From assembly GCA_016218825.1 (NCBI GenBank), contig JACRCV010000056.1, positions 160,416-224,415 of the forward strand: a stretch of DNA of 64,000 nt, in the 5' to 3' direction. The position numbers and the translations under genes were made by a program. This DNA comes from Deltaproteobacteria bacterium. GTDB taxonomy: Bacteria > Myxococcota > XYA12-FULL-58-9. Of this stretch, positions 2,624 to 55,127 are shown in pieces. The number at the start of each line of letters is the position of its first letter. Position 1 is the stretch's first letter. The notes beneath the pieces are model-generated. The model saw nothing but the letters and a program-made list of their open reading frames with translations. It ran no database searches and was not told the origin of the DNA.

Positions 2624-2631
2624 GCGCCGCG

Positions 2632-4137
2632 ATGCGCCGGCTCACGATTCCATGGTCGGGGGTGTTGGCCGCGGTCGGCCTCGGCCTCACCGCCTGCGGT
2701 GCGCTGCCGGCAGACGGGCTCGATGGCCCGGTCTTGGCGACCGAGGCCCTCAGGCCCGACAACCCGGCGCGCGAGTCGTTCGGTTTCGACCCCGGCGACA
2801 CGGTCGAGATCCTGGACTCGCCGGGTGGCGATTTCCGGGTTCATTACGCCCGCGCCGGGCGGTGCGCGGTACCGGACACCGACCTGGACGGCAACCTGAT
2901 GCCGGACTACGTCGAAGACACCGCGGCGGTCTACGACGACGTCTTGACCTTCTACCGCGACGCCCTCGGCTTTCGGGCGCCGCTCGCCGACGACGGCATC
3001 GGCGACAACGGCGGCGACGGCCGCTTCGACGTCTATCTGGTGGACTTCGGCGGCAACTCCGACGGCATGCTCGGGGTCGACGGCTGCCTGAACGCCAACC
3101 CGGATCAGTGCGTCGGCTACATGCTGCAGGAGAACGACTTCGCCCGCTCGCAAGACTACCGCTATTCGTCGCTCCACGTCGCGACCCAGATCCTCGCCAG
3201 CCACGAGTTCTTCCACGCGGTCCAGAACGCCTACGACGGCTATCAGGGCTCGATCTTGAGCGAAGGCACGGCCACCTGGGCGTCCGAAGCCTACAACGCA
3301 GCGCTGCCGGATTTCGAGAAAGCGATCCAGGCGTACATGGACAACCCCGACCAGCCGATCGACACGCCGATGCCGGGCATGTCGTTCAATTACAGCACCG
3401 CGATCTTCTTCGAGTTCCTCGCCGAGCGGCTCGGACAAGACGCAGTCCGCAAGATCTATGAGGCGTCCGAGAACGGCGCCAACGGTGTGAGCGATCCGAG
3501 CTGGTTCGCGGCACTGCCCGACGTCATCTCGAGCTACGGCCAAGGCGCCTTCGACCGGATCTTCGTGGACTTCGCCACCTGGAACTTGTTCACCGGCAAC
3601 CGCGGCGACCCGGCCCAGAGCTACGCCCTGGGGCGCAGCTACCCGCGGGTGCGCCTCGACGTCGTCAGCCCGCCCTATGTCGATGCGTTGGTACGGATAC
3701 CCCACGCCGCCACCAAGTACTTCAGCGTCGTGCCGTCGGGCCGGACCGAGATGACCGCGGCGCTCGTCGGCCCCCCCGAAGAGCTCGCCGATCTCCACCT
3801 GCGCCTCACCGTGGAGCGTGGCCCGGCCTTCGAAACGCCGCTCGCCGTCCAAGATCTCCAGGCCGGCACCGAGGTCGTGAGCACCGACCTCGCCCGGACC
3901 TTCATCGTCTTCCTCGTCAACACCTCGACCGGCGGCACGAGCCGGCGCCCCGGGTTGTGCATCGGCACGCCCGCCGAGGTCACGGCGTGCAAGGCACAGC
4001 TCAACCCGACGCCGCCGCCACCACCTACGGAAGAAGATCCGGGCGGCTGCCTGAGCGCCACACCGACCGGGCCGCTCGCCGTCGTGTCCTCTGTCGCCCT
4101 GTTGTGGCGGCGACGCCGCGGCCGGCGTCAGTCGTAG
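2632..4137 (+). CDS. Secreted HExxH zinc metalloprotease with MYXO-CTERM-like tail
   Basis: Signal peptide plus lipobox (LGLTACG). HEFFH zinc-binding motif (LASHEFFHAVQ). C-terminal GGC, hydrophobic segment, then RRRRGRRQS. This is the C-terminal part of the artefactual 169..4137 long ORF; the real start is the ATG at 2632. Confidence 0.7.
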   Translation: MRRLTIPWSGVLAAVGLGLTACGALPADGLDGPVLATEALRPDNPARESFGFDPGDTVEILDSPGGDFRVHYARAGRCAVPDTDLDGNLMPDYVEDTAAVYDDVLTFYRDALGFRAPLADDGIGDNGGDGRFDVYLVDFGGNSDGMLGVDGCLNANPDQCVGYMLQENDFARSQDYRYSSLHVATQILASHEFFHAVQNAYDGYQGSILSEGTATWASEAYNAALPDFEKAIQAYMDNPDQPIDTPMPGMSFNYSTAIFFEFLAERLGQDAVRKIYEASENGANGVSDPSWFAALPDVISSYGQGAFDRIFVDFATWNLFTGNRGDPAQSYALGRSYPRVRLDVVSPPYVDALVRIPHAATKYFSVVPSGRTEMTAALVGPPEELADLHLRLTVERGPAFETPLAVQDLQAGTEVVSTDLARTFIVFLVNTSTGGTSRRPGLCIGTPAEVTACKAQLNPTPPPPPTEEDPGGCLSATPTGPLAVVSSVALLWRRRRGRRQS

Positions 4138-5639
4138 CTGCCGAGCACCCACCACCGCGCCTTGTCGGGCGCGCCCGCCAAGCGTAGCCGCAGACCGCCC
4201 TGCAGCTCGACGTCGTAGAGATCGCAAGCCGGACCCGCGACCTCGGGCGGTTGCCACCACTCCTCGCCACGCCGAAACGGGCCGCGACAGGCGGTGATCG
4301 AACCGCGAAAGCTGCGACTCGCGATCGCCGCCGGCAACGCGCCCTGAACCAGCACCTCGACCTCGCAGGGCGGGCGGAGGCGCCGCAAGCTCGTCACCGG
4401 CGGGGTCACTTCGCCCCGAGGTGTTGGCGCCCGCGTCGAGGTCGCGACCGGCGTCAAGGTGAAGCGATCGTCGCCATAGGTGTCGAGCAGGCGCGGCGCA
4501 CCGATGCGCTCCGGGCCGCACAGCGCCTGCAGCCGGGCCACGGTGAGCGCGAGCTTGTCGGGCGCCGGGCGCGGGGCGGAGAACAACGCCAGCTGCACCG
4601 GCTGCAAGGACGCCGGCGTCGCGACGACGGCCACCTGGATCACGGGCGCCGGCAGCGGTGCCTCGCTGAGGTGCAGCCGGCAAAGGGCCAAGAGCGCCGG
4701 GCGCTCGCGGCTCGGCGCGCTCACCCGGACCAGACGCTCGAAGCGCTCGCCGCCGTCGGCGACGAAGGAGAGGCGGAGGTCGCCGCAGAGATAGCCGCGC
4801 GCCGCCAGCTGCACCAAGAGCCGACCGAGCAGCTCGTCGAGCACGGCGAGCAAGGGCTCGAGGTTGTCGAGCGCGTAGTCGAGGCTGAGGTCGGCGCCAA
4901 TGACGACCGGGGTCGCGGCCGGCTGCAGACCACCCCCCTCCTCCTCGCCGCGCGCGCGGCGCAAGAGCGAAAGCCCCGAAGGTCCGAGCTTGTCGCCCAC
5001 CCGTGCTGCCGGCAGCGCCAAGAGATCGGCGACCGTCGTCAAGCCGAAGCGCCGCAGGCGCAGCGCGAGGGCGGGCTCGGGTCGCAACGCCGCGAGGGGC
5101 AACCCGGCGACGAAGGCCTGCTCGGCCGCCGTCGTCTCGGCGACGATGCAAGTGTCCGCCGCGACATCGGCCGCGAGCCGCGCCAAGGTCTTGGTGCGGG
5201 CCACGCCGACGGTGACGACAAGTCCCGCGTGCCGCGCCTCGCAAAGCAGCAGCCGCGCCACCTCCGCCGGCGGGCCGACGAGACGATCGAGGCCGGCGAC
5301 GTCGGCGAACAGCCAGTGTTCATCGCCGGCGGTCTCGCGCTCGATCCGGGAGGAGTAGTGTTGCATCAGTGTCAGCAGCACCTCGGCGGCAGCCGCCTCC
5401 AAGACCGGATCGCGGGGGATGACGGTCAGCGCCGGGACGACGGCGCGCGCCTGGGCCACGGTGATCGGGGGACGGATCCCGAGGCGCGCGGCGGCCGGCG
5501 ACGCCGCCCAGATCCGATCACCGCCGCCGGTGAGGACGGCGCCGACGATCGCCAGCACCTCGTCGCGCCGCGTCGGCGCGGTGCGCCAAAGCGCCTGGAG
5601 CGAGAAGGTCGGGGCGCGCAGGGCAGCGACGCGCGTCAT
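4128..5639 (-). CDS. imuB: ImuB, inactive Y-family polymerase-like subunit of the error-prone ImuA-ImuB-DnaE2 mutasome
   Basis: The protein begins MTRVAALRAPTFSLQALW. The central LPLAALRPEPALALRLRRFGLTTVADLLALP block and overall layout match ImuB proteins (Y-family fold). Start ATG at 5639, 8 bp after the imuA stop. Confidence 0.8.
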   Translation of the reverse strand: MTRVAALRAPTFSLQALWRTAPTRRDEVLAIVGAVLTGGGDRIWAASPAAARLGIRPPITVAQARAVVPALTVIPRDPVLEAAAAEVLLTLMQHYSSRIERETAGDEHWLFADVAGLDRLVGPPAEVARLLLCEARHAGLVVTVGVARTKTLARLAADVAADTCIVAETTAAEQAFVAGLPLAALRPEPALALRLRRFGLTTVADLLALPAARVGDKLGPSGLSLLRRARGEEEGGGLQPAATPVVIGADLSLDYALDNLEPLLAVLDELLGRLLVQLAARGYLCGDLRLSFVADGGERFERLVRVSAPSRERPALLALCRLHLSEAPLPAPVIQVAVVATPASLQPVQLALFSAPRPAPDKLALTVARLQALCGPERIGAPRLLDTYGDDRFTLTPVATSTRAPTPRGEVTPPVTSLRRLRPPCEVEVLVQGALPAAIASRSFRGSITACRGPFRRGEEWWQPPEVAGPACDLYDVELQGGLRLRLAGAPDKARWWVLGSYD

Positions 5640-36787: not shown

Positions 36788-38287
36788 TCAGGCGCCGAGC
36801 GACCGGGGCTCGGCGTGCACCGCGACCCGGGTGAGCTCCGGCACCGCGGCGCGCAACGCCGCCTCCAGCCGGTCGGTGATCGCGTGCGCCTCGTCCATCG
36901 GGGTCTCGGCGGCGAGGAAGCAGTGACACGAGAGGTAGATGCCGGTCGCGGTGCGCGCGAACATCAGGTCATGGACCGCCGCGTCACCGACGACCCTGCG
37001 AGACACCGCCTCCACCTTGGAGGCCAGCGCCGCGCGCGTCCCGGCGTCGATCTCCCCCGAGACCTCCGCCTCGTCTTGGGCGAGCTCGAGGTGAATGTCG
37101 ACGCGGGAGAGCTCGGGCACGTCCCGGCGTACGCGCCTCTCGATCCGATCGGCGATCGCGTGACCTTCGCCGAGCGCCATCCGCCGCGGCAGCTCGATGT
37201 GCAGGTCGGCGTGACCCGCCGGCCCGTCTCTGCGCGCCGTGATGTCGTGCGCCTGGATGCCCTCGGAGGCGACGGCGATCGCGATGCGGTCGTGCAACGA
37301 CAACGAGCCCTCGACCTCGGCGTTCAACTGCACGGTGATGTGCGCCGCGCCGCCGAGCACCTCGCCGATCCGTCGCCGCACCTCCGCCGCCAGCCGCTCG
37401 CCCTCGGCCACCGGCAGGTTCCGCTGCATGCCGACCTCGACCTCCGCGAAGTATTGGTCGCCCGCCTGCCGCAGGCGAAGCTCCGGCGCCCCGGCGACGC
37501 CCGGCAGACCGGCGAGCGCGGCGCGGATCGCATCGAGCTTTCCGGCCGGGGCGCGATCGAGGAGCATGTCGGCGGCCCGCCTCCCGAGGTTCCACGACAG
37601 CACCAGGACGATGAGCGCCACGATGCTCGCCGCGATCGGATCGGCGAGCGTCAGCCACGCGACCCCGGACGTCCGGGCGACGACCACACCCACGAGCCCG
37701 ACGATGACGACGGCCGACGACGCGATGTCGGTCGAGAAATGCAGCGCGTCGGCCTCGAGCGCCTGGCTGTTGCTCATCCGCGCCACCCGCGCCAGATCGC
37801 GGGAGCGCACCAGATCGATCACGATCGAGGCGCCCATCACCGCGAAGGCGTACCCGCTCGGCTCCACCTCCGGGCCCTGGCCCATGAAGCGCTTGCCCGC
37901 CTCGTAGAGGATCCACACCGAGGTCGCGGCGAGCAGCAAGCTCTCGACGAGCGCCGAGAGGTTCTCGATCTTGCCGTGACCGTACTGATGCTCGGCGTCG
38001 GGCGGCCGCCACGAGCTCCGGACCGCGAACAAGGTGACCGCGGCCGCGCCAAAATCGAGCGCCGAGTGCGCCGCCTCGGCCAGCAGACCCAACGACCCGG
38101 TCGCGAGGCCGGCGATGAGCTTGATCGTCGTCAGGAAACCACCGGCGAGAACGCTCGCCAGCGCGGCGCGGATCTTCTCGCGGATGAGAAGCCGCCGCTC
38201 CCCGTCGATCGTCGGAACCGTGGTGTTCGACACAGGGCCCCCGCTCTCGTTGTCCGGCCGTTGTACCAGAGCGCGGAGCCGAGGCAA
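36788..38287 (-). CDS. Cation diffusion facilitator (CDF) metal efflux transporter with extended/duplicated C-terminal cytoplasmic domain
   Basis: TM domain with HSALDFG and HFSTD metal-site motifs, then two successive CTD-like regions. Start not verified. Confidence 0.75.
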   Translation of the reverse strand: MPRLRALVQRPDNESGGPVSNTTVPTIDGERRLLIREKIRAALASVLAGGFLTTIKLIAGLATGSLGLLAEAAHSALDFGAAAVTLFAVRSSWRPPDAEHQYGHGKIENLSALVESLLLAATSVWILYEAGKRFMGQGPEVEPSGYAFAVMGASIVIDLVRSRDLARVARMSNSQALEADALHFSTDIASSAVVIVGLVGVVVARTSGVAWLTLADPIAASIVALIVLVLSWNLGRRAADMLLDRAPAGKLDAIRAALAGLPGVAGAPELRLRQAGDQYFAEVEVGMQRNLPVAEGERLAAEVRRRIGEVLGGAAHITVQLNAEVEGSLSLHDRIAIAVASEGIQAHDITARRDGPAGHADLHIELPRRMALGEGHAIADRIERRVRRDVPELSRVDIHLELAQDEAEVSGEIDAGTRAALASKVEAVSRRVVGDAAVHDLMFARTATGIYLSCHCFLAAETPMDEAHAITDRLEAALRAAVPELTRVAVHAEPRSLGA

Positions 38288-38340: not shown

Positions 38341-38784
38341 TTGCAGGTGAGCTCCACTCCCCTGCCCACCGCGCCGGCGTCGGCGCTCGTCTTCGTCGTC
38401 GACGACGAGCAGGGAAACCTCGACCTGGTGGCGCGGACGCTGCGCGCCACCTGCCAGACTCGGACCTTCGTCGAGAGCCGCTCGATGCTGGAGGCGGCCG
38501 AGAAGGACGCCCCCGACCTGGTCCTCGTCGACTTCCGGATGCCGAACACGACCGGCGTCGAGGTCCTGCGGGCCTTGCGGCAGAAAGGGATCAACTGCCC
38601 GGCGCTCTTGGTCACCGGCTTCCCCGACATGGAGGAGGTGAAGAGGGCGCGCGACGAGGGCCTGATCTTTCGGGTGATCACCAAGCCCTGGTCGCCGCCG
38701 GCGCTGGTCGCGAACGTGACGTTGGCCTTGTCGCTGGCACGGCTCGACAAGACCATGGAGACGATCGGCAAGGCCGAACGCTAG
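38341..38784 (+). CDS. Stand-alone response-regulator receiver (CheY-like) protein
   Basis: LVFVVDDE ... LVLVDFRMP ... KP receiver motifs. Start is a TTG at 38341 or a GTG at 38346. Confidence 0.7.
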   Translation: MQVSSTPLPTAPASALVFVVDDEQGNLDLVARTLRATCQTRTFVESRSMLEAAEKDAPDLVLVDFRMPNTTGVEVLRALRQKGINCPALLVTGFPDMEEVKRARDEGLIFRVITKPWSPPALVANVTLALSLARLDKTMETIGKAER

Positions 38785-38802: not shown

Positions 38803-39639
38803 ATGCAAGGCACGCCGAAGCCCGTGATCCTGATCGTCGACGACGAGCCCGACAACCTCGATTTGCTGGAGCGGGCCCTGCGCTCCGAGTACGTCGTCCA
38901 CCGCGCCGCGAGCGGTCACGAAGCCCTGCAGCTCCTCCCCGATCTCCCCGAGTTGAGCATCATCATCACCGACCAGCGGATGCCCGGGCTCGCCGGCACC
39001 GAGATGCTCCGCAAGGCCCGGGTGCGCCGCCCCGAGGCGGTGCGCATCATCCTCACCGGCTACACCGAGCCCGCCGACCTCATCGACGCGATCAACAACT
39101 CCAACGTCTACCGTTACCTCACGAAGCCCTTCCGTCCCGACGAGCTCCGGCTGCTGTTGCGCCGCGCGCTCCGGGTCAACCGCGCCGGCGGCGGCTACAT
39201 GGTCGACGAGGTGACCGGCCTCGCGAACCGCGGCCTGCTGCAACGCCAGTTGGCTCGGGAGCTCGCCCGCGCCGATCGCCTCGCGGCGCCCCTGGTGGTG
39301 GTCGCGATCCGGGTGAACGGCGTCTCCGAGTGCATCGCGGCGCTCGGTGAGCCGACGACCGAGCTGATGATCGCCAACGTCGCCGAGAGCCTCGAGAAGC
39401 AGATCCGCGCCATGGACATCTTGGGCTACTACGACCCTGGGATCTTCCTCGCCATCCTCCCCGGCTGCAGCGAGCCGGAGACCGCGGTGCGGCGGTTGGT
39501 CGAGCTCGCCGAGCAGGCCTCCGACGCCCAGACCATGCGGACGCGAGTGAGCGCGCTCGGCTTCTCCGGGACCTTCGTCAAGGTCGCCGCCAAGGCCGGC
39601 ATCGACGAGGTTCGCCGCGCGCTGCAGCTACCGGACTGA
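38803..39639 (+). CDS. Response regulator: REC + degenerate GGDEF domain
   Basis: REC domain (ILIVDDEPDN ... ITDQRMPG ... TKPF). GGDEF-like fold (EVTGLANRGLL) in which the GG(D/E)EF site is LGYYDPG and the metal-binding Asp positions are lost. Confidence 0.75.
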   Translation: MQGTPKPVILIVDDEPDNLDLLERALRSEYVVHRAASGHEALQLLPDLPELSIIITDQRMPGLAGTEMLRKARVRRPEAVRIILTGYTEPADLIDAINNSNVYRYLTKPFRPDELRLLLRRALRVNRAGGGYMVDEVTGLANRGLLQRQLARELARADRLAAPLVVVAIRVNGVSECIAALGEPTTELMIANVAESLEKQIRAMDILGYYDPGIFLAILPGCSEPETAVRRLVELAEQASDAQTMRTRVSALGFSGTFVKVAAKAGIDEVRRALQLPD

Positions 39640-39664: not shown

Positions 39665-41014
39665 TCAGGCCACCGCACCGGCGCTCGCGGCCACCGAGTC
39701 GGCCGACGGCAGCCACACCGTGAAGGTGGTGAACTTGCCGACCTCGCTCTTCACCGAGATCTTGCCGTTGTGGGCGTTGACGATCGAGTAGGTGATCGAG
39801 AGCCCGAGCCCGGTCCCCTCACCCACCGGCTTGGTGGTGAAGAACGGGTCGAAGATCTTCAGCTGCAGATCCTCGGGGATGCCGACGCCGTTGTCGGTGA
39901 TCTCGGTCGCGACCCCACCCTGCTCCTCGTGGACCACGATCTCGATCTGCCCCTTCTTCGGGATCGCCTGGACGCCGTTGATCAGGATGTTCATGAACAC
40001 CTGGTTCAAGCGCCCCTCGTTGCCCCACACCTCCGGCGCCGTCGGGTTGTAGTTGCGCACGATCGCGACCCGGTCCTTGGTGTTGTGGCTGATGAGGTTC
40101 AAGGCGCGCTCGATGCACTCCGGCAGCCGCACCCGACCCATGTTGTCGTCCGAGCGGTGACAGACCTGACGCAGATCGCGGACGATGCCGGCGACCCGCT
40201 CGGTGCCGAGCCGAATCGACTTGGTGAGCTTCGCCAGGTCCTCGCGCACGTAGGCCAGGTCGACCTCGGTCTCCACCGCGCGGATCCGGGCCGCCTGCTC
40301 TTCGGGCAGCTCGAGCCCGTCGTGGGCGCCGATGACCTTCAAGAGCGCGGCGACGTGGCTGTCGAGGAAATCGAGGTTGCCGTAGATGAAGTTGATCGGG
40401 TTGTTGATCTCGTGCGCGACGCCGGCGACCAATTTGCCCAGCGACGACAGCTTCTCCGATTGGATCAGCTGCGCCCGGGTCGAGCGCAGCTCGTCCAACG
40501 ACTTCTGCAGATCGGCGGTGCGGGCCTTGACCTGCTCTTCGAGCAGCTCGGCGCGCCGGCGCTCGTTGTCGAGCAGGACCTTGTAGCGATCCTGGATCCG
40601 CGCCTCGGCGGTGACGTCACGGTAGGTCTCGAGCACCGCCCACACGTTCCCCTGCGGGTCGCGCAGCGGGATGGTGCTGACGATCAGGGTCTGCTGGTCG
40701 TCGTCCTTGTTCTTGACCCGCTGGCCGTGGATCTCGTGCACCCGCACCGACCGCCCGTCGTTGAAGGTGCGCGCGCCCAGACAGCCGGAGTCACAGACCT
40801 CCAGGCCATAGAGATCGCGACAACGGGTGCCGGGTCGCTCGGCCTCGCGCGCCAGGCTCTTGGCCCCGAGGCCGACGGTCTCGGCGTAGGCCGCGTTCCA
40901 CGCCAGCGGTTTCAGGTCGCGGGAGACCACGACGGCGGCGTCGGTGATGCCGTCCAGGAGAGAGCGCAGCTGCTGCGGATCGTACTGGGTGGGTGGCGAT
41001 TGCTCGGCTGCCAT
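39665..41014 (-). CDS. PAS-domain sensor histidine kinase (cytoplasmic)
   Basis: PAS-like N-terminus. H-box ([13 protein letters not shown]). N, G1 and G2 boxes ([21 protein letters not shown]). Confidence 0.85.
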
Positions 41015-41027
41015 GGTTGCGAACGCT

Positions 41028-41501
41028 TCAGCCCCTTCTCAGGAAGGCAAAGTAGCTGTCCTCGAGGTCGTCGAACTCCATCTTGCCGGCGCAGTGCGGA
41101 CAGGCGCGGTTCGCGAGGTCCGGGACGCGCCCGGACTCGACGCTGACGACGACGCGCTCGGAGCGGCCACACTTGTCACACATGAACGGCGCCTGCACCG
41201 ACACCACCCGCGCCAGGCCGACGAAGTTGCTGATGGTGTTGATCTGGTTGACCATCGGCGGGCTGCACTGCTCGAGCTTCACCTTCAGGTTGTTCGGCAG
41301 CTTGCGCATGAAGTTGACCCACTCGCGCACGCCGCACGAGTTGACCCGGTTGATGCCGCCGAGGTCCATGCTCACCTGGTTCTTGCCGGCAAGCGCGGTC
41401 ACCAGCGGCGCGAAGTCGGCGTCCTCGTTGACCGGGCCCGACAGCTTGACGCCGGCTTCGGCGCCCTTGGCATCGATGACCCACTCCAATCGACTGCTCA
41501 T
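41028..41501 (-). CDS. STAS-domain (anti-sigma-antagonist-like) protein with C-terminal Cys4 zinc ribbon
   Basis: SpoIIAA-like pattern (VKLSGPVNEDADFAPL ... VSMDLGGINRVNSCGVREWV ... LEQCSPPMVNQINTISNF). Then CDKC-x22-CPHC. Good GGAGAG ribosome-binding site. 32 bp after the kinase gene. Confidence 0.65.
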   Translation of the reverse strand: MSSRLEWVIDAKGAEAGVKLSGPVNEDADFAPLVTALAGKNQVSMDLGGINRVNSCGVREWVNFMRKLPNNLKVKLEQCSPPMVNQINTISNFVGLARVVSVQAPFMCDKCGRSERVVVSVESGRVPDLANRACPHCAGKMEFDDLEDSYFAFLRRG

Positions 41502-41533
41502 CCGTTACTCTCCGTGGTGCTGCCTGGCAGCGG

Positions 41534-43285
41534 TCACGACTTGGAGGGTGACTTGACCTGCTGCAACAGCCGGAAGAACCGCGATGCCTTGTCAGAGTCG
41601 CTCGCCAACAGCGCGTCCACCAGGCTCGAGGCGCCGCACCTTCTGACGAACTCGTTCTCGAAGCGAATGACGTGCGGGAACAGCTTCTTCAACCACGCCG
41701 CGAGGTCGGTCTCGCCCTTGAGCTTGGTCAGCGCGGCGCGCAGATCGGCCTCCATCTTGCCGGCGTCCGAGTACCGGTGCGCCGGATCCTTCTCCAGGCT
41801 CTTCTCGATGATCGGGAACAGGCTGCGCGGGATCTTCGAGGTCCAGCCGGGACGGTCGATCTTGTCGTTGACGATGGCATAGGCGGTCTGGTCGACGGTG
41901 GCGCGGCGGAACGGGTTGGCGCCGGTGAGCATCGAGATCAAGAGCAGCCCCGCGCCCCAGAGATCGGTCTGCGGCGTCGCCTCCTTGCCGAGGAAGATCT
42001 CCGGCGCCATCCAGAACGGGTTGCCGAGGATGGTGTCCTTGTCCCAGTTGCGGCTGCGGACGTAGCCGGCGAGGCCGAAGTCGACGAGCTTGACGACGCC
42101 GTCGAAGCTCACCAGCACGTTGCCCGGCGTGACGTCGCGGTGCACCAACATCCGGCCGCTGGTGTCGGGTATGTGGGCGCGCGCCAACCCCTTGCAGAGG
42201 TCGGCGATGATGGTCGCGACCACCGTGGGCGGCACGGTCGCGCCGTGGCCGACCACCTCGCTCATGATCTCGGTGAGGCTGCGGCCGTGGACGAACTCCA
42301 GCACCATGAAGAACGAGCCCTCGACCCGCTCGAGATCGAGGACGCGGATGACGTTCGGGTGATCCATGCGCGCCGCGAGCTTGGCCTCGTCCAAGAACAG
42401 CCGGATCATGCGGTCGTCGGTGGACAAGTCGGCGCGCACCTGCTTCACCACCGCGAGGCGGCGGAAGCCCATCGCGCCGTGCTGGCGCACCAGGTGCACC
42501 TCCGCCATCCCGCCTTCGCCGAGCTTACAGACGAACTCGTACTTGTTCGCGAAGCGCTTCTTGGCCTCTTCGACCGTCGCCTTGGCCACCGCCGCCTTCT
42601 GGGCCACCGCCGGCTTCTTGGGCGGCGCCGCCTTCGCCGGTGCGGGGCTGCTCGCCGCCACCGCACGCCCGGGCCGCTGCTTGCTCACCGCGGCGATGAA
42701 CTCGCGGTAGTCCTCTTCGCGCTCGGCGATGTCGATCGGCACGCCGCACTCGGCGCACGACGGGCTCGACGCCAGCCAGCCGTCGAACGAGCCGACCGCG
42801 ATCGAATACCAGGTCGCGCGCCGGCAGGTGCCGCAACGTCCGGGGAATAGGATGCTCGCTACCGTGGCGCCGGAGAGCAGCGCCGGGTCGTCGGCGAAGC
42901 GCCGCAACGCCACCGCCGAGCAGTTCACCAGGCTGGTCGCCACGTTCTGGGTCAGCGAGTCCATTGCCGTCCGCCAGCGCTCGAAGCCGCTGGCGTCGAA
43001 GTGCGCGACCCGCTGCATGTCGATGGTCGCCGACGGGCTGTCGGTCGCGGCCACCTGCCGGCCCGGGAACGTGCCGTCGATGATCCCCGCCAGGCGGATG
43101 TTGGTGTTGTTGCCCTCGACCGACTGCCGCGTGGTCAGCCGGACCCCCGGCACTTCGGGCAGCCAGCTGTCGGGGCGCCGCATGGTGCCGAGCACCGCCG
43201 CCGGCGGCGCCGCCGGGGTCACCGAGCGGACGTACTCGAACAGGATCGAGGGATCGTCGTCGAGCTGCGCGTCGCGGCCGCACAC
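41534..43285 (-). CDS. Hanks-type Ser/Thr protein kinase with N-terminal STAS-like + zinc-ribbon module
   Basis: Complete kinase motifs: GEGGMAEV, AVVKQV, HRDVTPGNVLV, DFGLAG, WMAPE. The N-terminal region is paralogous to the 41028..41501 protein (FDASGFERW...CGTC...CAEC). The annotated 5' end is the first start codon (GTG) after an in-frame TAG, so the true N-terminus is uncertain. Confidence 0.75.
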   Translation of the reverse strand: MCGRDAQLDDDPSILFEYVRSVTPAAPPAAVLGTMRRPDSWLPEVPGVRLTTRQSVEGNNTNIRLAGIIDGTFPGRQVAATDSPSATIDMQRVAHFDASGFERWRTAMDSLTQNVATSLVNCSAVALRRFADDPALLSGATVASILFPGRCGTCRRATWYSIAVGSFDGWLASSPSCAECGVPIDIAEREEDYREFIAAVSKQRPGRAVAASSPAPAKAAPPKKPAVAQKAAVAKATVEEAKKRFANKYEFVCKLGEGGMAEVHLVRQHGAMGFRRLAVVKQVRADLSTDDRMIRLFLDEAKLAARMDHPNVIRVLDLERVEGSFFMVLEFVHGRSLTEIMSEVVGHGATVPPTVVATIIADLCKGLARAHIPDTSGRMLVHRDVTPGNVLVSFDGVVKLVDFGLAGYVRSRNWDKDTILGNPFWMAPEIFLGKEATPQTDLWGAGLLLISMLTGANPFRRATVDQTAYAIVNDKIDRPGWTSKIPRSLFPIIEKSLEKDPAHRYSDAGKMEADLRAALTKLKGETDLAAWLKKLFPHVIRFENEFVRRCGASSLVDALLASDSDKASRFFRLLQQVKSPSKS

Positions 43286-43360
43286 CGCGCACTGCCGGAC
43301 CGGGGCCTCCGGCGCGGCGAACGCCGTGTGGTCGAGCTGCGCGTCGAAGAGGTGCGTGGT

Positions 43361-43363
43361 CTA
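43361..43363 (-). other. In-frame TAG codon separating the STAS fragment from the Ser/Thr kinase ORF
   Basis: The track ORFs 43361..43702 and 41534..43285 share a reading frame (43702 minus 43285 is 417, which is 139 codons). The only interruption between them is this stop. Confidence 0.6.
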
Positions 43364-43702
43364 CTCGCCGCAGGAGTCGCACTGGTAGTACGACCGGAAC
43401 GACAACAGCGAACCGCCGCCGTCGAAGCCGACCACCATGTTGAACTGGTCGCTCATGCGCGGCGAGGCACGGACGAAGAACAGCCCCTCCACCTGCTGGC
43501 GGACGGCGCGCACCGCGTTGATCCAATCGCGGACGCCGACCGACGACAGTTGCTTGATGTGGGCGACGTCGAGGACCAGGAACTTGGCGCCGGCGGGCTG
43601 GAGCACCGCGGCGTCAAACGAGTCATCGAGGCGCCCCGACAGGGCGCGGAGGAGGACCGTACCGTCCTTCAACTCACGCAAGACCCGCATGTTGGCTGCC
43701 AT
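43361..43702 (-). CDS. STAS-like domain fragment ending inside a zinc ribbon; in frame with the downstream kinase (probable 5' part of a disrupted or recoded gene)
   Basis: Paralogous to the 41028..41501 protein. It stops after the first CxxC (YYQCDSCGE-TAG). The next 25 in-frame codons plus the kinase ORF continue the ribbon (..RQCAVCGRDAQLDDD..). Confidence 0.5.
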   Translation of the reverse strand: MAANMRVLRELKDGTVLLRALSGRLDDSFDAAVLQPAGAKFLVLDVAHIKQLSSVGVRDWINAVRAVRQQVEGLFFVRASPRMSDQFNMVVGFDGGGSLLSFRSYYQCDSCGE

Positions 43703-50090: not shown

Positions 50091-52286
50091 CTACTCCACC
50101 ACATCGACCAAGAGCATGGTCATGTCGTCTTCCTGCGGCGTGTCCTCGGGCCGCAGGCGATCGACTTGATCCATGATGTGCTTCGCGGCGTCCTCGATGC
50201 CCATGCCCGCGGTCTCGAGCAGGAAGGCGCGCAGCGCTCTAATGCCGGTGGCCTTGGTCTTGCGGATCGCCTCGAACTCGTACAACCCGTCGGTGAACAT
50301 GAAGATCCGGGTGCCCGGCAGCTTCGGGATCTCGAGGTGGCCGATCTGGAGCTCGGGCGCCAACGCCAGCGGCGTACCGCGAACCGCCCTGCCCTGCACC
50401 CGCCGGTCCGGGTCCAACACCAGGAGCATCGGCGCGCCGCCGTTCCACCAGTGGATGACGCTCTCGTCGTGCGGCATGTCGAGCAGCGACATCGTCATGT
50501 GGTAGTGACCCTGGGCGGTCACCAGCAGCTCGTCGTGCATCTCTTTGAGCTGCTCTTCGACCGACAGCTCCGGCATCATCCGCCGCAGAATGCGGTAGAC
50601 GCTCTCGGTCGCCGCGGTCACCATCGCCGGCCCCGGGCCGTGGCCGGAGACGTCGCCGACCGCGACCCGCACCGAGCCCTGGTGGTCGTCGAACCACCAC
50701 CAGTCACCGCCGCACTCGTCGGCGGCGCGGCAGAAGCCATGGATGACGAGCCCCTCGGCCCGCATGGTCTTGTGCTTGGGCTGGAACATCTCCTGGACGG
50801 CGGCGATCAGCGCCATGTCCTTCTTGTAGGCGGCCTCGAGGCTCTTCTTGCCGGCCTCGACCAGCTGGGTCATCGCGAGCTTCTCCTGGATGATCGCCTG
50901 CAGCGTGTTCTGCAGATCGTCATAGGAGCGCGCCAGGTTGGTCAGGGTGACGTTGCCGTGGCCCATGAGCTCGCGGTAGGTCACCTGCGGCGGCACCGGC
51001 AGGCCGCAGGTCTTCGCGACCCGCGCGACGCCCTCGGGGATCGCGGTGAACAGCTGCTCGGCGCCGTCGCGAGCGATCCCCAGCAAGTCGCAGGCCTTGA
51101 ACGCCGCTTGCCGGGTTTGCTCGACGTCGCCGGGCTCGAACATCGCCGCGATCCGCTCCACCACCCACGCCACGAGCGCCAGCGGCTCGCCGCCCGGAGG
51201 CTCATCGTCGTGGTGATGCAGAACGGCCTCGACGACGCCGTGTGGCACGTCCCAGTCGGTCGCGAGCTCCATCACCCGGACGCCGTGCTCGACTTCATTC
51301 GCCGCCCGTTCGCGGATCGGGCGCGACTTCGACGGGCTCAGGCCGATCTCCAGCGCCCCGGTCGGGTCGTGCATCGCCCGCGCCAACAGGCCGGCATCCA
51401 TCAGGAAGCCGGCGGCGACCGCGAAGTTCAGGTCGACGTCCCGCACCCAGTTGCACACCAACGACGCGGTGACCGCGCGCCGCAGCACCAGCGGCAACAG
51501 GTACTCGACCGCGGGGTTGGTCTCTTTGACGAGGTCGAGCACCGAGAGCGCCATGGTGACGGCCTCGACGCCGTCGATCCCGAGCTCCTCGATCACCGCG
51601 TCCGGGTCCTTGGTGACGTCGGTCACCGAGAACAACCGGCTCGCGGTCAACGCCCGGAAACGATTCTCGAAAAGCTTGTCACCCTTCACCAGCTGCTTCT
51701 GCTCGTTGAGCTCGGCGGTGTCGTGACGCGCCGGCTCCGCCGCCGCCCCCGGCTTGCGCTTCACCGCGAGGTTGCTGAGCGCGGTGGACAGCGCCGCGAA
51801 GTTGACCGGCTTCGGCAGCATCAGATCGCCGCCCACCGCCTTGAGCTCGTCCTCGGAGTAGCGCGCGCCGTAGCCGGTCACGAAGATGATCGGCAGCTTG
51901 TCGAGCAGCGGCACCGCCTTGGCGTACTTGGGCTTGCGCGCCTCCGGCAACGTGCCGCGCGCCAGCTTCGTGAGCTCGATGCCGTCCATGTGCGAGCCCT
52001 TGAGCTCGATGTCCATCAACACCGCCGCGAGCTCCTTGCCGCTCTCGGCGAGGATGGCGCAGGCCTCCTGGTCGTTCTTCGCCCACTGCATCGCGAAGCG
52101 CCGCTTCAACACCAGCTCGGTGACCTCCCAGTTCTCGGGCACGTCCTCGACGTAGAGGATCCGTTGGCGCTCGGTCTGTGGCAGCGGCGCCGCCAACGCC
52201 CGGCGCGCCCCGGCGCCGGCGACCGACGCCGGATCGCTCGCGTCCGGGGTGCTCTTGCTGACACTCCATTTGTGGAGCTTCTTCAT
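50091..52286 (-). CDS. Response regulator with REC + HDOD-like + PP2C (SpoIIE/RsbU-type) phosphatase domains
   Basis: REC domain (ILYVEDVPEN ... LMDIELKG). PP2C motifs (GGDWWWF ... VGDVSGHGPGPAM ... FTDGLYE). Confidence 0.8.
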   Translation of the reverse strand: MKKLHKWSVSKSTPDASDPASVAGAGARRALAAPLPQTERQRILYVEDVPENWEVTELVLKRRFAMQWAKNDQEACAILAESGKELAAVLMDIELKGSHMDGIELTKLARGTLPEARKPKYAKAVPLLDKLPIIFVTGYGARYSEDELKAVGGDLMLPKPVNFAALSTALSNLAVKRKPGAAAEPARHDTAELNEQKQLVKGDKLFENRFRALTASRLFSVTDVTKDPDAVIEELGIDGVEAVTMALSVLDLVKETNPAVEYLLPLVLRRAVTASLVCNWVRDVDLNFAVAAGFLMDAGLLARAMHDPTGALEIGLSPSKSRPIRERAANEVEHGVRVMELATDWDVPHGVVEAVLHHHDDEPPGGEPLALVAWVVERIAAMFEPGDVEQTRQAAFKACDLLGIARDGAEQLFTAIPEGVARVAKTCGLPVPPQVTYRELMGHGNVTLTNLARSYDDLQNTLQAIIQEKLAMTQLVEAGKKSLEAAYKKDMALIAAVQEMFQPKHKTMRAEGLVIHGFCRAADECGGDWWWFDDHQGSVRVAVGDVSGHGPGPAMVTAATESVYRILRRMMPELSVEEQLKEMHDELLVTAQGHYHMTMSLLDMPHDESVIHWWNGGAPMLLVLDPDRRVQGRAVRGTPLALAPELQIGHLEIPKLPGTRIFMFTDGLYEFEAIRKTKATGIRALRAFLLETAGMGIEDAAKHIMDQVDRLRPEDTPQEDDMTMLLVDVVE

Positions 52287-52345
52287 TTATGCTCCCGGCG
52301 CCCCGCCAAGGTATCGCGAGGCTCTCGCCTGCTCCGCTGGAGTCG

Positions 52346-53347
52346 TCACATCTCGGGACCGCGCGGCGCCTCGAGCTGTTCGCGACGCTCGAACTCCTGC
52401 ACCACGCGCTGGTAGGCCGAGTCCTCCTGCATGCACAAGGCGCTGTAGGCCACGGTCCAGTTGTGCATGAAATACTTCAGGTCGGCGGCCAGATCCGCGC
52501 GCAGCTCGGCGAGCGTCGGGCTCTCGAACTCGACGCCGACGCCGGCGCGCACCTTGCGCATGCCGGTGTTGCGCGGCGGATCACCGAAGAACGCCCGCCA
52601 GCTGCGCTTGACGGCCGACCCGAAGCCGGTCCCAGGCTCCTGACCCCGGACCTCGATCTCGTAGGGCATGACGTACTCGGTGGCCTGCAGCCCCGAGCCT
52701 TGATCGTTCCGGAACACGCCGCGCTCCCGCCCCTGCTCGTGCGCCTGCTTCAGCGCCGCGCGGAACCGCGCCGAGCCGCCGACGTCGGTGTCGACGTTCG
52801 GGAAGAACTCCATCCGGACTCCCGCCCGCGCCGCGAGCGCCGCCATGCTCTTGTTCATCACCGCCGCCAAGTCCTGGGTGGTGGAGACCTTCTGCAGACA
52901 GACCGCGAAGCCCTCCATCTGCCGTCCCAAGGCGATCAGCATCTCGATGTCCAGAGACGCCCGCAGCCCGGCGCGCACCAAGGTGTGGAGGCGATCCGGC
53001 GTCGCCTCCGACTTGGCGAGGTAGTAGTCGATGTCGTAGTCGTTGAGGATCTTCTCTTCCGGCGCGACGCCCGGCTGCCCGGTGCGCAACACCAGGCGCA
53101 GTGACCGGTCGCAGTGGGCGCGGATGTGGCGACACAGATCGAGACCGGCGTGATCCGTCTCCATCACCACGTCGATGAACGCGACGTTGAAGCTCTTGGT
53201 GGCCAGGATCTGTTGCGCTTCTTTGCCGCTCGCGGCGCTGGTGATCGTGAACTTCTTCTGCCGCCAGCTGCGGTGCTTGAGCGCCAGCTGCGTGATCTGG
53301 TGCACGTCCGGTTCGTCGTCAACTACGAGGATCTGCCAGTTTTCCAT
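52346..53347 (-). CDS. Response-regulator-like protein: N-terminal REC + uncharacterised ~200-aa domain (no output kinase)
   Basis: REC domain (NWQILVVDDEPD ... FIDVVMETDHAGLDLC). The C-terminal domain is paralogous to the middle domain of the next gene (..YFMHNWTVAYSALCMQE..). Start ATG at 53347. Confidence 0.7.
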   Translation of the reverse strand: MENWQILVVDDEPDVHQITQLALKHRSWRQKKFTITSAASGKEAQQILATKSFNVAFIDVVMETDHAGLDLCRHIRAHCDRSLRLVLRTGQPGVAPEEKILNDYDIDYYLAKSEATPDRLHTLVRAGLRASLDIEMLIALGRQMEGFAVCLQKVSTTQDLAAVMNKSMAALAARAGVRMEFFPNVDTDVGGSARFRAALKQAHEQGRERGVFRNDQGSGLQATEYVMPYEIEVRGQEPGTGFGSAVKRSWRAFFGDPPRNTGMRKVRAGVGVEFESPTLAELRADLAADLKYFMHNWTVAYSALCMQEDSAYQRVVQEFERREQLEAPRGPEM

Positions 53348-53360
53348 GGTCGCTCCAAAG

Positions 53361-55127
53361 CTACTTCCGCAAGCTGAGGGCCGTCGGCTGCACACTCGCG
53401 CCTTGCACGGGTGCGGTCTTCGGCAGCAGGAGGGTGAACGTTGCCCCTTGTCCCGGTTTGCTGTCAACCCTGATCGAACCGCCCAGGAGATTGGTCACGA
53501 TGTTGTGCGAGATCGCCAGCCCGAGCCCGGTGCCGCCCTTGTTGCGCCCCGAGGTGACGAAGGGCTCGAACATGCGCGGCATCATCTCGGCCGCGATCCC
53601 CTTGCCGAAGTCGCGGTACACCAGCTTCAGCATCGGGCCCTTGTCGCCGTTGGCGTTGCTGAGCGTGATCTCGATCTTGCCGCCGCTCTGGCCCTCGTCG
53701 TAGCCGTAGCGACAGGTGTTCTGGATGAAGTTCACCAGCACCTGCGACAAGTGGCCAGGGTAACCATCCCACTCGAGGTTCGCGTTCGGCTCCTCCACCA
53801 CCGTCGCCTGGATGCTCTGCTTCTTGAGCACCGGCCCCATGGTGTCGACGCAGGTCCGTGCGACCTCGCCGATCGGCGCCAGCACCCGATGATCGGAGAG
53901 CTGCGACGCCGAGAGCTGCTTGAAGTTCTTGATCAGGTCCTGGGCGCGCACCAGGTTCTTGGTGAGCAGATCGGCCGATGACGTCAGGTCCGCGGCCATC
54001 TCCTTGCGCTGCGTCGGGTCGACGTTCTCCCCGGCCAGCTGCTGGGCGAGGTCGACCACCATCGCCCGCGCGGTGTTCGCGACCCCGAGGGGGGTGTTCA
54101 TCTCGTGCGCCACCCCGGTGACCATCGTCGCGATGCTCTGCATGCGCTCGAAGTACATCTGCTCGCGCAACATCCGTTCCTTGGCCAGACGCTCTTGAAG
54201 CCGCAACGTCGAATACGCGATGCGCCAGTTCTCGATGAACAGCCGGGCGTCGGAGGAGAAGTCGTTGATCGCCTTCTCCGAGAAGTACTCCGGCACGATC
54301 TCGGCGTAGAGACCGCCGTTGCCCACCGTGACCTCGCCGGCCTGCCCCTCTTCCTTGCCGGGCTCCTCGACCTTGGTGCAGAACAACTGCACCAAGCTGT
54401 TGTTGGGAAATCCCACCGCCGGGCCGCGGCTGAGGCTGATGTCGGCACCGGGCTTCGCGGTTTCGTGCAGGCCCTTGAGCTTGGCCTGGACTGTGTGAGA
54501 TTCGACCGACGTCTTGCCGGAAAACTGGATCGGGATCGGCGTGTCTACCGAGAGGTCGTAGTAGAACAGGCTCGAGGCGTTGTGCTTCAAGTCCAAGAAC
54601 GCGATGCCCTCGCGCATGAACACCAGCAGATCTTCGAGCGAGGTCACGCGCTGCAGCGCGCGGGTGAAGCTCTGCAGCTGGCGGCCGAACGCCAGCAGCG
54701 TCGAGATGTCCTCGGAGCTGCGCAGGCACGAGCGGATGACCGAGTACAGCTTCTCGGGCGAGGCGTCGGTCTTCTCCATATAGAAGTCGATGTCGTAGTT
54801 GTTGAGCACGGCCTCCTCCGGCGCCATGCCCGGCTGGCCGGTGCGCAACACGATGCGGGCCGACGGCGGACAGTTGCTGCGAATGTACTGACAGAGCTCG
54901 AGGCCGGCGGTGTCGGTCTCCATCACGACGTCGACGATCGCCACCCGGTACTGCGCCGGGTTCTTGCTGATGATCGCCTTGCCTTCCTTCAGGCTCTTGG
55001 CGTGCGCGATCTCGAAGCCCTTCTTCTTCCACTTCTTGCGTCGCAGCGCGAGCTCGGTGACGTTGTGAACGTCTTCCTCGTCGTCGACGACGATCAGCTG
55101 CCAGTTCTGGCCTTCATCCATTGTCAA
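53361..55127 (-). CDS. Hybrid sensor kinase: N-terminal REC + uncharacterised domain + HisKA/HATPase
   Basis: REC domain (NWQLIVVDDEED ... IVDVVMETDTAGLELC). H-box (VTGVAHEMNTPLGV). HATPase N/G boxes (NFIQNTCRYG, GTGLGLAIS). The first ATG is 2 codons inside the track ORF. Confidence 0.8.
   Translation of the reverse strand: MTMDEGQNWQLIVVDDEEDVHNVTELALRRKKWKKKGFEIAHAKSLKEGKAIISKNPAQYRVAIVDVVMETDTAGLELCQYIRSNCPPSARIVLRTGQPGMAPEEAVLNNYDIDFYMEKTDASPEKLYSVIRSCLRSSEDISTLLAFGRQLQSFTRALQRVTSLEDLLVFMREGIAFLDLKHNASSLFYYDLSVDTPIPIQFSGKTSVESHTVQAKLKGLHETAKPGADISLSRGPAVGFPNNSLVQLFCTKVEEPGKEEGQAGEVTVGNGGLYAEIVPEYFSEKAINDFSSDARLFIENWRIAYSTLRLQERLAKERMLREQMYFERMQSIATMVTGVAHEMNTPLGVANTARAMVVDLAQQLAGENVDPTQRKEMAADLTSSADLLTKNLVRAQDLIKNFKQLSASQLSDHRVLAPIGEVARTCVDTMGPVLKKQSIQATVVEEPNANLEWDGYPGHLSQVLVNFIQNTCRYGYDEGQSGGKIEITLSNANGDKGPMLKLVYRDFGKGIAAEMMPRMFEPFVTSGRNKGGTGLGLAISHNIVTNLLGGSIRVDSKPGQGATFTLLLPKTAPVQGASVQPTALSLRK

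Follow-up and report, generated by a model that had tools for sequence, protein, structure and literature searches.

A STAS–zinc ribbon domain family at a Myxococcota signalling locus and its possible role in a partner-switch-type cassette with a Hanks-type kinase

The locus described here lies in a 64,000-nucleotide stretch of DNA (the window), which comprises positions 160,416 to 224,415 of contig JACRCV010000056.1 from a Deltaproteobacteria bacterium (assembly GCA_016218825.1; Myxococcota) and has a G+C content of about 69%. Its minus strand carries a series of four open reading frames (ORFs): a 113-codon ORF, a GTG-started ORF for a Hanks-type Ser/Thr kinase of 583 amino acids (aa), a 157-aa ORF, and an ORF for a histidine kinase of 449 aa. 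The first ORF starts with an ATG at 43702 and ends with a TAG at 43361, and the Hanks kinase ORF (43285..41534) ends 32 nucleotides before the 157-aa ORF (41501..41028), which is followed after 13 nucleotides by the histidine kinase ORF (41014..39665). Three copies of one module are encoded in this series (Table 1). Modules 1 and 2 precede the Hanks kinase domain in a 722-aa protein obtained by reading through the TAG, and module 3 is the 157-aa stand-alone protein. The module is referred to here as STAS-ZnR, as it combines a STAS core with a predicted Cys4 zinc ribbon (ZnR) and an acidic tail.

Module 3 matches module 1 with a BLASTP E-value of 2e-14 and module 2 with an E-value of 6e-9, and aligns to residues 21–159 (straight across the stop codon) and 196–336 of the read-through protein. 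A profile of 41 stand-alone homologs scores 83.1 bits against module 1 and 46.5 bits against module 2 (E-values of 1.6e-18 and 3e-7, respectively, scaled to a library of 1.84e9 proteins). Judged by these scores, the paralogy of the three modules is far beyond chance. In each module, a CxxC-x22/26-CxxC pattern is followed by an acidic aromatic tail. Module 1 (Cys108, Cys111, Cys138, Cys141; tail LDDDPSILFEYV) has the full family signature, with Ser54 in LSSVGVRDW, and the stand-alone protein (Cys108, Cys111, Cys134, Cys137; tail FDDLEDSYFAFL) has Ser55 in NSCGVREW. Module 2 keeps all of its cysteines (Cys290, Cys293, Cys316, Cys319), but has Ala at the phospho-Ser position (FDASGFERW; D-A-S-G) and has lost the REW motif, Gln86, Asn88, and the FDD tail. 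An earlier sequence-only reading of this DNA had reported three paralogous modules, each with CxxC pairs and an acidic tail, and had described the two short intergenic gaps, the PAS histidine kinase, and a REC-PP2C protein; all of these descriptions hold. It had also read a DSSG-like phospho-Ser position in every module, at which Ser is present in module 1 (Ser54) and module 3 (Ser55) but not in module 2, and had treated module 2 as a full module, whereas this paralog, with its four cysteines, is a degenerate copy.

Module 1 spans two ORFs. The 113-codon ORF and the kinase ORF share one frame and are separated by a single TAG (translation of 43450..43200), which lies between the two CxxC knuckles of module 1 and reads ...YYQCDSCGE*TTHLFDAQLDHTAFAAPEAPVRQCAVCGRDAQLDDDPSILFEYV... 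at the stop; past the TAG, the same frame encodes the second CxxC and the AQLDDDPSILFEYV tail. The previous delimitation of module 1 as residues 1–113 of the ORF at 43361..43702 is therefore incorrect, because that ORF stops inside the ribbon, and as assembled, a covalent module 1–module 2–kinase protein does not exist. However, a Logan assembly of SRR12113407 (contig L001) matches 3,186 bp of the window with a sole mismatch at 43363, where C in place of T gives CAG (Gln) and an open frame; the gene call on this contig has 682 residues and reaches the contig edge. An intact 722-aa allele with two STAS-ZnR modules and a kinase domain thus exists in the same population, and the covalent fusion first proposed from the sequence is broken in the deposited assembly and intact in the Logan assembly. 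The NCBI annotation contains only the 583-aa GTG-started kinase, which, owing to the TAG, lacks residues 1–139 and has an internal GTG as its start. On comparison of the two assemblies, the TAG would be an error of assembly or consensus calling, or else a variant carried by a minority of the population, and the intact kinase gene is the CAG allele. Recoding of the TAG was considered and rejected, as the CAG allele of the second assembly is the simpler explanation.

The sequence evidence for a STAS core is weak but consistent. Module 1 matches the Pfam families STAS_2 (19.5 bits, E 1.1e-3; cut-off 29.2) and STAS (16.0 bits; cut-off 22.6), and module 3 has no match to either at E ≤ 1. At the same threshold, STAS is touched by 17 of the 41 homologs (best E 1.3e-4) and STAS_2 by 13 (best E 3.6e-5). 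Two larger proteins exceed the STAS cut-off of 22.6 (P0057, 26.6 bits; P0064, 26.2 bits), and one homolog is annotated by JGI as 'MlaB component / RPC12'. An AlphaFold2 model of all 157 residues of the stand-alone protein, based on the 41-sequence alignment, has a predicted local distance difference test (pLDDT) score of 95.9 and a predicted template modeling (pTM) score of 0.89, and Foldseek agrees with a STAS fold, in which about 100 of the 157 residues align. The part outside the STAS alignment consists of β-strands 101–108, 114–120, and 140–143 and the terminal helices, and corresponds to the ribbon and tail; no solved chain covering both the STAS part and the ribbon was found by Foldseek. 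An α/β STAS fold of the SpoIIAA/RsbV/SLC26 type is settled by this predicted structure. In this domain, the last helix of the STAS core is replaced by the predicted Cys4 zinc ribbon and an acidic FDDxEDxYFxF tail.

A profile restricted to the STAS part aligns Asn54-Ser55-Cys56-Gly57 of the stand-alone protein with the D-S-A/T-G motif of TM1442 and RsbV, so that Ser55, the first residue of helix 55–67 in the model, coincides with the phospho-acceptor Ser. This STAS-only profile gives clean but weak STAS matches among PDB sequences, whereas a search of the same sequences with the full profile is swamped by spurious C2H2 zinc-finger matches to the ribbon half. The proposed STAS identity of the window modules thus stays below the Pfam thresholds, but is sustained by profile alignments in which the invariant Ser coincides with the phospho-Ser of RsbV and TM1442. 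Pfam zinc-ribbon families match the modules and their homologs only below threshold. The four ribbon cysteines show little or no variation among the three modules and across the architecture classes, in agreement with the Cys4 ribbon first read from the sequence, and the ribbon is a predicted zinc site.

An exhaustive profile search of 1.84 billion representatives (clusters at 50% identity) yields 1,082 matches at E ≤ 1e-30, as well as 3,885 at E ≤ 1e-10 and 4,821 at E ≤ 1e-3, the latter two counts being upper bounds because C2H2 zinc-finger arrays are attracted by the ribbon half. All of the 150 best matches, which were inspected individually, span the whole profile. Stand-alone single modules of 150–181 aa account for 68 of them, and about 21 have a single module with a C-terminal extension (236–359 aa). 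Short double modules (about 280–440 aa) are found in 7, and a double module followed by a Hanks kinase in 15 (14 of 672–770 aa and one of 1,090 aa), so that the STAS–kinase fusion is a recurrent architecture. At least 31 combine a double module with a transmembrane (TM) helix and a periplasmic PDZ-like region (about 550–755 aa), and two are fusions to FIST_N/FIST_C (P0198 and P0199; 1,080 and 1,168 aa). The commonest double-module architecture is the TM/PDZ-like type (e.g., P0057, P0058, P0063 to P0067) and not the kinase; its periplasmic region of about 300 aa has a PDZ-like C-terminus ending in ...RDDPTQ or ...IWDDNP[DF][EN]. Pfam and NCBIfam scans of the modules revealed no model of the STAS-ZnR domain, and members are named 'hypothetical protein', 'serine/threonine protein kinase', or 'anti-anti-sigma regulatory factor' in their sources. 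Assignment of the window kinase to a defense system was rejected on score and context (NCBIfam MADS6, 117 bits; cut-off 460). When one genome per species was scanned, 347 stand-alone-type genes were confirmed, and the best 80 loci are nearly all from metagenome-assembled genomes (MAGs) labeled Myxococcota or Deltaproteobacteria (Kofleriaceae, Haliangiales, Polyangia), the remaining few being from Bdellovibrionales, other classes, or simply 'bacterium' (UBA-type names).

The residue equivalent to Ser55 is conserved in 69/69 single proteins, 16/16 first modules of the kinase type, and 37/37 first modules of the TM type. Invariant or near-invariant in stand-alone proteins and first modules are [NST]-S-x-G-[VI]-R-E-W, Gln86, Asn88, Phe93, the four cysteines, and the FDD..Y..F tail. 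In second modules, nothing but the Gly and the four cysteines is retained; the Ser is changed to Pro, Glu, Ala, or Asp, REW is lost, and the tail is missing. Module 2 of the window obeys this rule of second-module degeneracy. The pattern suggests that each double-module protein would have one functional face, with the second copy serving a structural role in a pseudo-dimer.

The Hanks kinase domain is clearly recognized by Pfam (Pkinase PF00069; 138.9 bits, cut-off 31.7; E 2.7e-40), with a Gly loop (GEGGMAEV), AVVK, HRD, DFG, and APE all present. Among the related loci, 7 encode a double-module kinase no more than 4 kb from the stand-alone gene. In 6 further loci (L030, L040, L059, L061, L064, and L069; e.g., L040:9534-14660), a Pkinase-AAA_16/STAND-TPR-GAF-SpoIIE protein of about 1,700 aa is encoded in or beside the cassette, and in 4 of these it follows directly on the same strand. 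These giant proteins are encoded beside a pair of REC-like/GHKL and STAS-ZnR genes, and L040 has a PAS-GGDEF gene as well. In L002, PilZ-TPR (3905-4645, minus strand) and STAS-ZnR-TPR (2612-3901, minus strand) genes adjoin that of the double-module kinase, and the PilZ-TPR neighbor hints at a connection to cyclic di-GMP (c-di-GMP).

Gene context was compared in 80 related loci, to which were added L082 and L083, the loci of the two proteins closest to the window stand-alone protein (56–58% identity). The gene found most consistently directly after stand-alone STAS-ZnR genes is that of the PAS histidine kinase: an ortholog of the window protein (E 1e-47 to 1e-146) is encoded a few bases downstream in at least 44 of the 80 loci, 67 of 81 loci contain the wider PAS-containing cluster, and a single-domain REC gene is next in 29. 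A Cys-bearing PAS enzyme of the histidine kinase or GGDEF type is almost always encoded after the stand-alone gene. In L040, the same position is occupied by a PAS-GGDEF gene, whose product is 41% identical (E 1e-32) to the window histidine kinase over the PAS domain and linker. Both proteins have a Cys cluster, C-x9-C-x3-C, located at PAS residues ~64–78 of the histidine kinase; a metal or redox cofactor might be bound there. Small PAS-only proteins adjoin other STAS-ZnR genes. As the PAS domain is thus joined to a histidine kinase, to GGDEF, or to no output, the conserved partner would be the PAS domain itself. In the window, the REC and REC-GGDEF proteins are probable phosphorelay partners of the histidine kinase.

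Enzymes typical of STAS regulation are also linked to the family. A SpoIIE-type PP2C gene lies within 8 kb on either side of the stand-alone gene in 48 of the 80 loci, usually as HAMP-SpoIIE together with a TPR protein, which at family level supports the PP2C link suggested in the sequence-only reading; whole myxobacterial genomes contain 1 to 13 SpoIIE-like genes (PMC2887360). In 16 loci, as well as in L082 and L083, the start of the stand-alone gene meets, or is overlapped by, the end of a gene for a REC-like/GHKL protein of about 320 aa. This protein family has invariant E..N-A, D..G, and G-A-G-L-G boxes and an N-terminal REC-like domain, and a few members have a HATPase_c_2 match or carry the name 'anti-sigma regulatory factor (Ser/Thr protein kinase)'. 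From these motifs, the ~320-aa protein is identified as a putative SpoIIAB/RsbW-like GHKL kinase translationally coupled to the STAS gene. In the window, the Hanks kinase gene occupies the position held elsewhere by the GHKL gene, and no REC-like/GHKL homolog was found in the 64 kb searched of the 224-kb contig. Across the family, the partner most conserved with the stand-alone protein is not the Hanks kinase but the Cys-bearing PAS enzyme encoded downstream, joined by the SpoIIAB/RsbW-like GHKL kinase in the closest relatives, which have no Hanks fusion. Kofleriaceae-type cassettes encode, directly upstream of the stand-alone STAS-ZnR protein, a secreted or TM-anchored protein of about 310 aa with no Pfam match (L010:6980-7963, L008:6979-7956, and 25 other loci), preceded by TPR and HAMP-SpoIIE genes; by eye, it resembles a periplasmic binding protein.

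Table 1. Features of the locus and its surroundings (positions refer to the window).
Feature	Position	Strand	Remarks
Module 1, STAS core with Cys4 ribbon and acidic tail	43220..43702	-	Residues 1-161 of the 722-aa read-through protein
In-frame TAG within the zinc ribbon of module 1	43361..43363	-	Frame-0 translation; CAG in the second assembly
Module 2, degenerate STAS-ZnR copy	42686..43147	-	Residues 186-339; profile 46.5 bits, BLASTP E 6e-9
Ala/Pro/Lys-rich low-complexity linker	42542..42685	-	Residues 340-387, read from the translation
Hanks-type Ser/Thr kinase domain	41768..42541	-	Pfam Pkinase, E 2.7e-40, 138.9 bits
Kinase C-terminus (~77 aa, without family match) and stop codon	41534..41767	-	
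Stand-alone STAS-ZnR protein, 157 aa	41028..41501	-	Identical to NCBI HY903_11165
Cytoplasmic PAS_4-HisKA-HATPase_c histidine kinase	39665..41014	-	Pfam
REC gene	38341..38784	+	Pfam; convergent to the histidine kinase gene
REC-GGDEF gene	38803..39639	+	Pfam; convergent to the histidine kinase gene
REC-HDOD-SpoIIE (PP2C) protein, candidate phosphatase	50091..52286	-	Pfam SpoIIE E 1.6e-28, HDOD, REC

Several known systems share parts of this arrangement. Like the SpoIIAA/SpoIIAB/SpoIIE and RsbV/RsbW/RsbU modules of Bacillus, the STAS-ZnR family would provide a STAS switch with a Ser aligned on the phospho-Ser at the N-terminus of helix α2; it is linked to SpoIIE-family PP2C genes, and in the closest relatives its STAS gene is translationally coupled to that of a putative kinase of the SpoIIAB/RsbW fold. 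Unlike the Bacillus proteins, however, STAS-ZnR has a Cys4 ribbon followed by a conserved acidic tail where the last helix would be, the window copies fall below the Pfam STAS thresholds, and copies are fused to a Hanks kinase. In addition, the GHKL kinase of the family has an N-terminal REC-like domain, is encoded upstream of the STAS gene, and is absent from the window, and the scan of 30–56 kb of the window revealed no sigma or anti-sigma gene. In the SiaA/SiaB/SiaC/SiaD system of Pseudomonas aeruginosa, a PP2C phosphatase, a kinase, a STAS-like switch, and a diguanylate cyclase act together (PDB 6kko). The likeness lies in a STAS-like phospho-switch whose output is a signaling enzyme rather than a sigma factor, as may also apply to the PAS-GGDEF gene after the STAS-ZnR gene in L040. 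In contrast, SiaC belongs to DUF1987 and lacks a zinc ribbon, the Sia system has no Hanks kinase, and the output candidate in the window is a PAS histidine kinase.

SypE of Vibrio fischeri and HsbR of Pseudomonas are partner-switch kinases/phosphatases with REC domains, which act on SypA and HsbA, respectively. Here too, an RsbW-like kinase with a receiver domain controls a STAS switch, tying partner-switching to two-component signaling. The kinase, REC, and PP2C parts of SypE and HsbR are in one polypeptide, though, there is neither a zinc ribbon nor a Hanks kinase, and the outputs are polysaccharide, flagellar, and biofilm functions (for SypA/SypE, see PMC10120452). The view that Hanks kinases do not act on STAS proteins, adopted in the sequence-only reading, overlooked a precedent in Mycobacterium tuberculosis: PknD, a Hanks-type receptor kinase, phosphorylates the anti-anti-sigma homolog Rv0516c and thereby alters its partner binding (PMC1847690). 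PknD and Rv0516c are separate proteins that are not co-operonic as in the window, Rv0516c has no zinc ribbon, and the modified residue is Thr2 in its N-terminal extension. In Sorangium cellulosum, COG1366 (STAS) domains fused to eukaryotic-like kinases (ELKs) have been noted and an ELK-linked function suggested (Treuner-Lange 2010, PMC2887360). This is a single-sentence remark with no domain dissection, zinc ribbon, tandem, stand-alone paralog, or neighborhood analysis, and by this description the fusions are comparable as STAS-ELK proteins only, without implying STAS-ZnR membership. The locus was thus only in part an undescribed variant, as STAS-ELK fusions were on record, but in the literature on STAS with a zinc ribbon or on STAS–Hanks partner-switching we found no description of the STAS-ZnR family, of tandem active and degenerate modules, of the stand-alone paralog, or of the PAS/PP2C/REC-GHKL neighborhood.

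The STAS-ZnR family is real, widespread, and experimentally tractable; the mechanism offered here is a proposal. We read the locus as a partner-switch-type phospho-signaling cassette built on this unnamed domain, and give the full model, with the Hanks kinase as the writer, a probability of roughly 0.4. For the stand-alone protein, a phospho-switch is the most economical role: the fold is that of STAS, the Ser is invariant and aligned, and a SpoIIAB-like kinase and SpoIIE-type phosphatases accompany the family. The constant PAS neighbor and the lack of sigma/anti-sigma genes among those scanned suggest that the output is an enzyme, as it is in SiaABCD, and the Hanks kinase is proposed as the writer because of its domain fusion, its position, and the independent association of STAS-ZnR with Pkinase-PP2C proteins. 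It is plausible that the Hanks kinase phosphorylates the stand-alone protein. The latter would be the switch, which in its unphosphorylated form would bind and modulate the co-transcribed PAS histidine kinase; when bound, it would also affect the relay to REC and REC-GGDEF, resembling SiaC acting on SiaD. Phosphorylation of Ser55, for which the likely writer here is the Hanks kinase, would release the switch. Module 1 of the kinase might dock the switch protein by hetero-dimerization or serve as a cis-substrate, with module 2 as its structural pseudo-dimer partner, and the REC-HDOD-SpoIIE protein, a SpoIIE-type PP2C, would reset the switch.

A number of points weigh against this model. The kinase, described earlier as fully intact, does have the Gly loop, Lys, HRD, DFG, and APE motifs, but its catalytic loop (42119..42142, minus strand) reads HRDVTPGN, without the canonical Lys of HRDxKxxN; homologous fusions likewise have HRDV[ST]PxN. 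The target of PknD on Rv0516c is Thr2 and not the canonical Ser (PMC1847690). The candidate PP2C gene is 8.6 kb from the stand-alone gene, with unrelated metabolic genes as well as transport genes in between, and no sigma or anti-sigma families occur among the genes scanned in 30–56 kb of the window. The search for a GHKL gene covered 64 kb of a larger genome, and a Hanks fusion and a GHKL kinase coexist in five loci (L002, L005, L006, L007, and L011), so that the Hanks kinase need not replace the GHKL kinase. The conservation of Arg59, Glu60, Trp61, Gln86, Asn88, Phe93, and the tail far exceeds the needs of a phospho-acceptor loop, and, as it is the same in TM-type and FIST-type proteins without a kinase, a common ligand or partner fits equally well.

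This extreme invariance beyond the Ser, which includes the Cys4 ribbon, also favors the view that STAS-ZnR is a sensor domain that binds a ligand, metal, or redox signal, for example as a zinc-thiolate redox switch or a nucleotide-binding STAS domain, and controls the attached or adjacent protein (Hanks kinase, TM/PDZ protein, or PAS histidine kinase) without being phosphorylated; the invariant Ser would then have a structural role in capping the helix N-terminus, or belong to a binding pocket. STAS-ZnR is N-terminal in the kinases and lies downstream of FIST sensor domains in P0198 and P0199, and a general role of STAS domains in NTP binding was once proposed (cited in PMC2887360). The exact alignment of the Ser with the phospho-Ser argues against a pure sensor, as do the hallmark STAS-modifying enzymes of the family, namely the SpoIIE-type PP2C, which is strongly enriched, and the translationally coupled SpoIIAB/RsbW-like kinase in relatives, and we regard this view as somewhat improbable.

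We consider it unlikely that the Hanks kinase is a target or competitor instead of the writer, with a GHKL kinase encoded elsewhere in the genome modifying all STAS-ZnR copies. Phosphorylation of Ser54 would then regulate the Hanks kinase in cis, or module 1 would compete for the GHKL or PAS partner. The complete stand-alone signature kept by module 1 would suit such a role, as would the coexistence of both kinases in five loci and the presence of the GHKL gene without a Hanks fusion in the closest relatives. Set against this, the window has no GHKL homolog, none of the 66 GHKL-family relatives in the database is listed for a contig of 224,724 bp, the length of the contig that contains the window, and the Hanks kinase domain is conserved with its catalytic motifs kept. 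A stressosome-like scaffold, in which STAS-ZnR paralogs form a hetero-oligomeric hub like that of RsbR/RsbS, sequester a kinase, and release it on a signal, is very unlikely: STAS is C-terminal in RsbR and N-terminal here, a zinc ribbon takes the place of the canonical C-terminal STAS helix, and no RsbT- or RsbX-like gene order is seen, even if several STAS-ZnR paralogs with different extensions (TPR, other C-terminal parts) can occur within one locus and the tandem duplication suggests module pairing. Just as improbable is a decaying gene with a real and fixed TAG, so that only a 113-aa STAS fragment and a 583-aa kinase are made and the fusion is non-functional; the TAG in the deposited MAG and the NCBI annotation of the 583-aa protein alone would agree with it, but an independent assembly of the same population has CAG, there are no other lesions, the post-stop sequence, with its second CxxC and its tail, still fits the family profile, and GC3 (G+C at third codon positions) is of the coding type (0.90–0.96) on both sides of the stop.

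Extended beyond the locus, the phospho-switch model would define a distinct and widespread class of partner-switching in Myxococcota, in which Hanks kinases write the STAS mark beside or instead of GHKL kinases, output passes through the Cys-bearing PAS domain, and the ribbon provides a metal or redox input; we hold this extension to be doubtful. In such a class, the Hanks kinases would be fused to STAS-ZnR or embedded in giant Pkinase-STAND-GAF-PP2C proteins, and the PAS domain would drive a histidine kinase or a diguanylate cyclase and not a sigma factor. If true, eukaryotic-like Ser/Thr signaling would be wired directly into His-Asp and c-di-GMP signaling. To our knowledge, myxobacteria have hundreds of eukaryotic-like kinases, almost none of them with a known substrate or a link to other signaling systems. 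The locus offers a concrete, testable circuit of kinase, substrate, phosphatase, and output in its fused domain, stand-alone paralog, linked PP2C, and PAS enzyme, and brings to light a sizeable domain family that has no Pfam or NCBIfam model and numbers at least 1,082 clusters (50% identity) at E ≤ 1e-30.

Further features of the surroundings were noted. A promoter and terminator scan of 38–45 kb of the window was uninformative. The translation of the REC-GGDEF gene reads ...GYYDPGIF... where GG[DE]EF is expected, so that by eye its active-site motif is seemingly degenerate. The REC-HDOD-SpoIIE protein (731 aa) belongs to a second signaling cluster (50091..55127, minus strand), which also encodes a REC-containing protein of 373 aa and a REC-HATPase_c protein of 588 aa. 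A zinc transporter of the cation-diffusion-facilitator type, with Cation_efflux and three ZT_dimer stretches, is encoded at 36788..38287 on the minus strand, about 1.4 kb past the end of the histidine kinase gene and beyond both REC genes; its proximity to zinc-ribbon domains is probably a coincidence.

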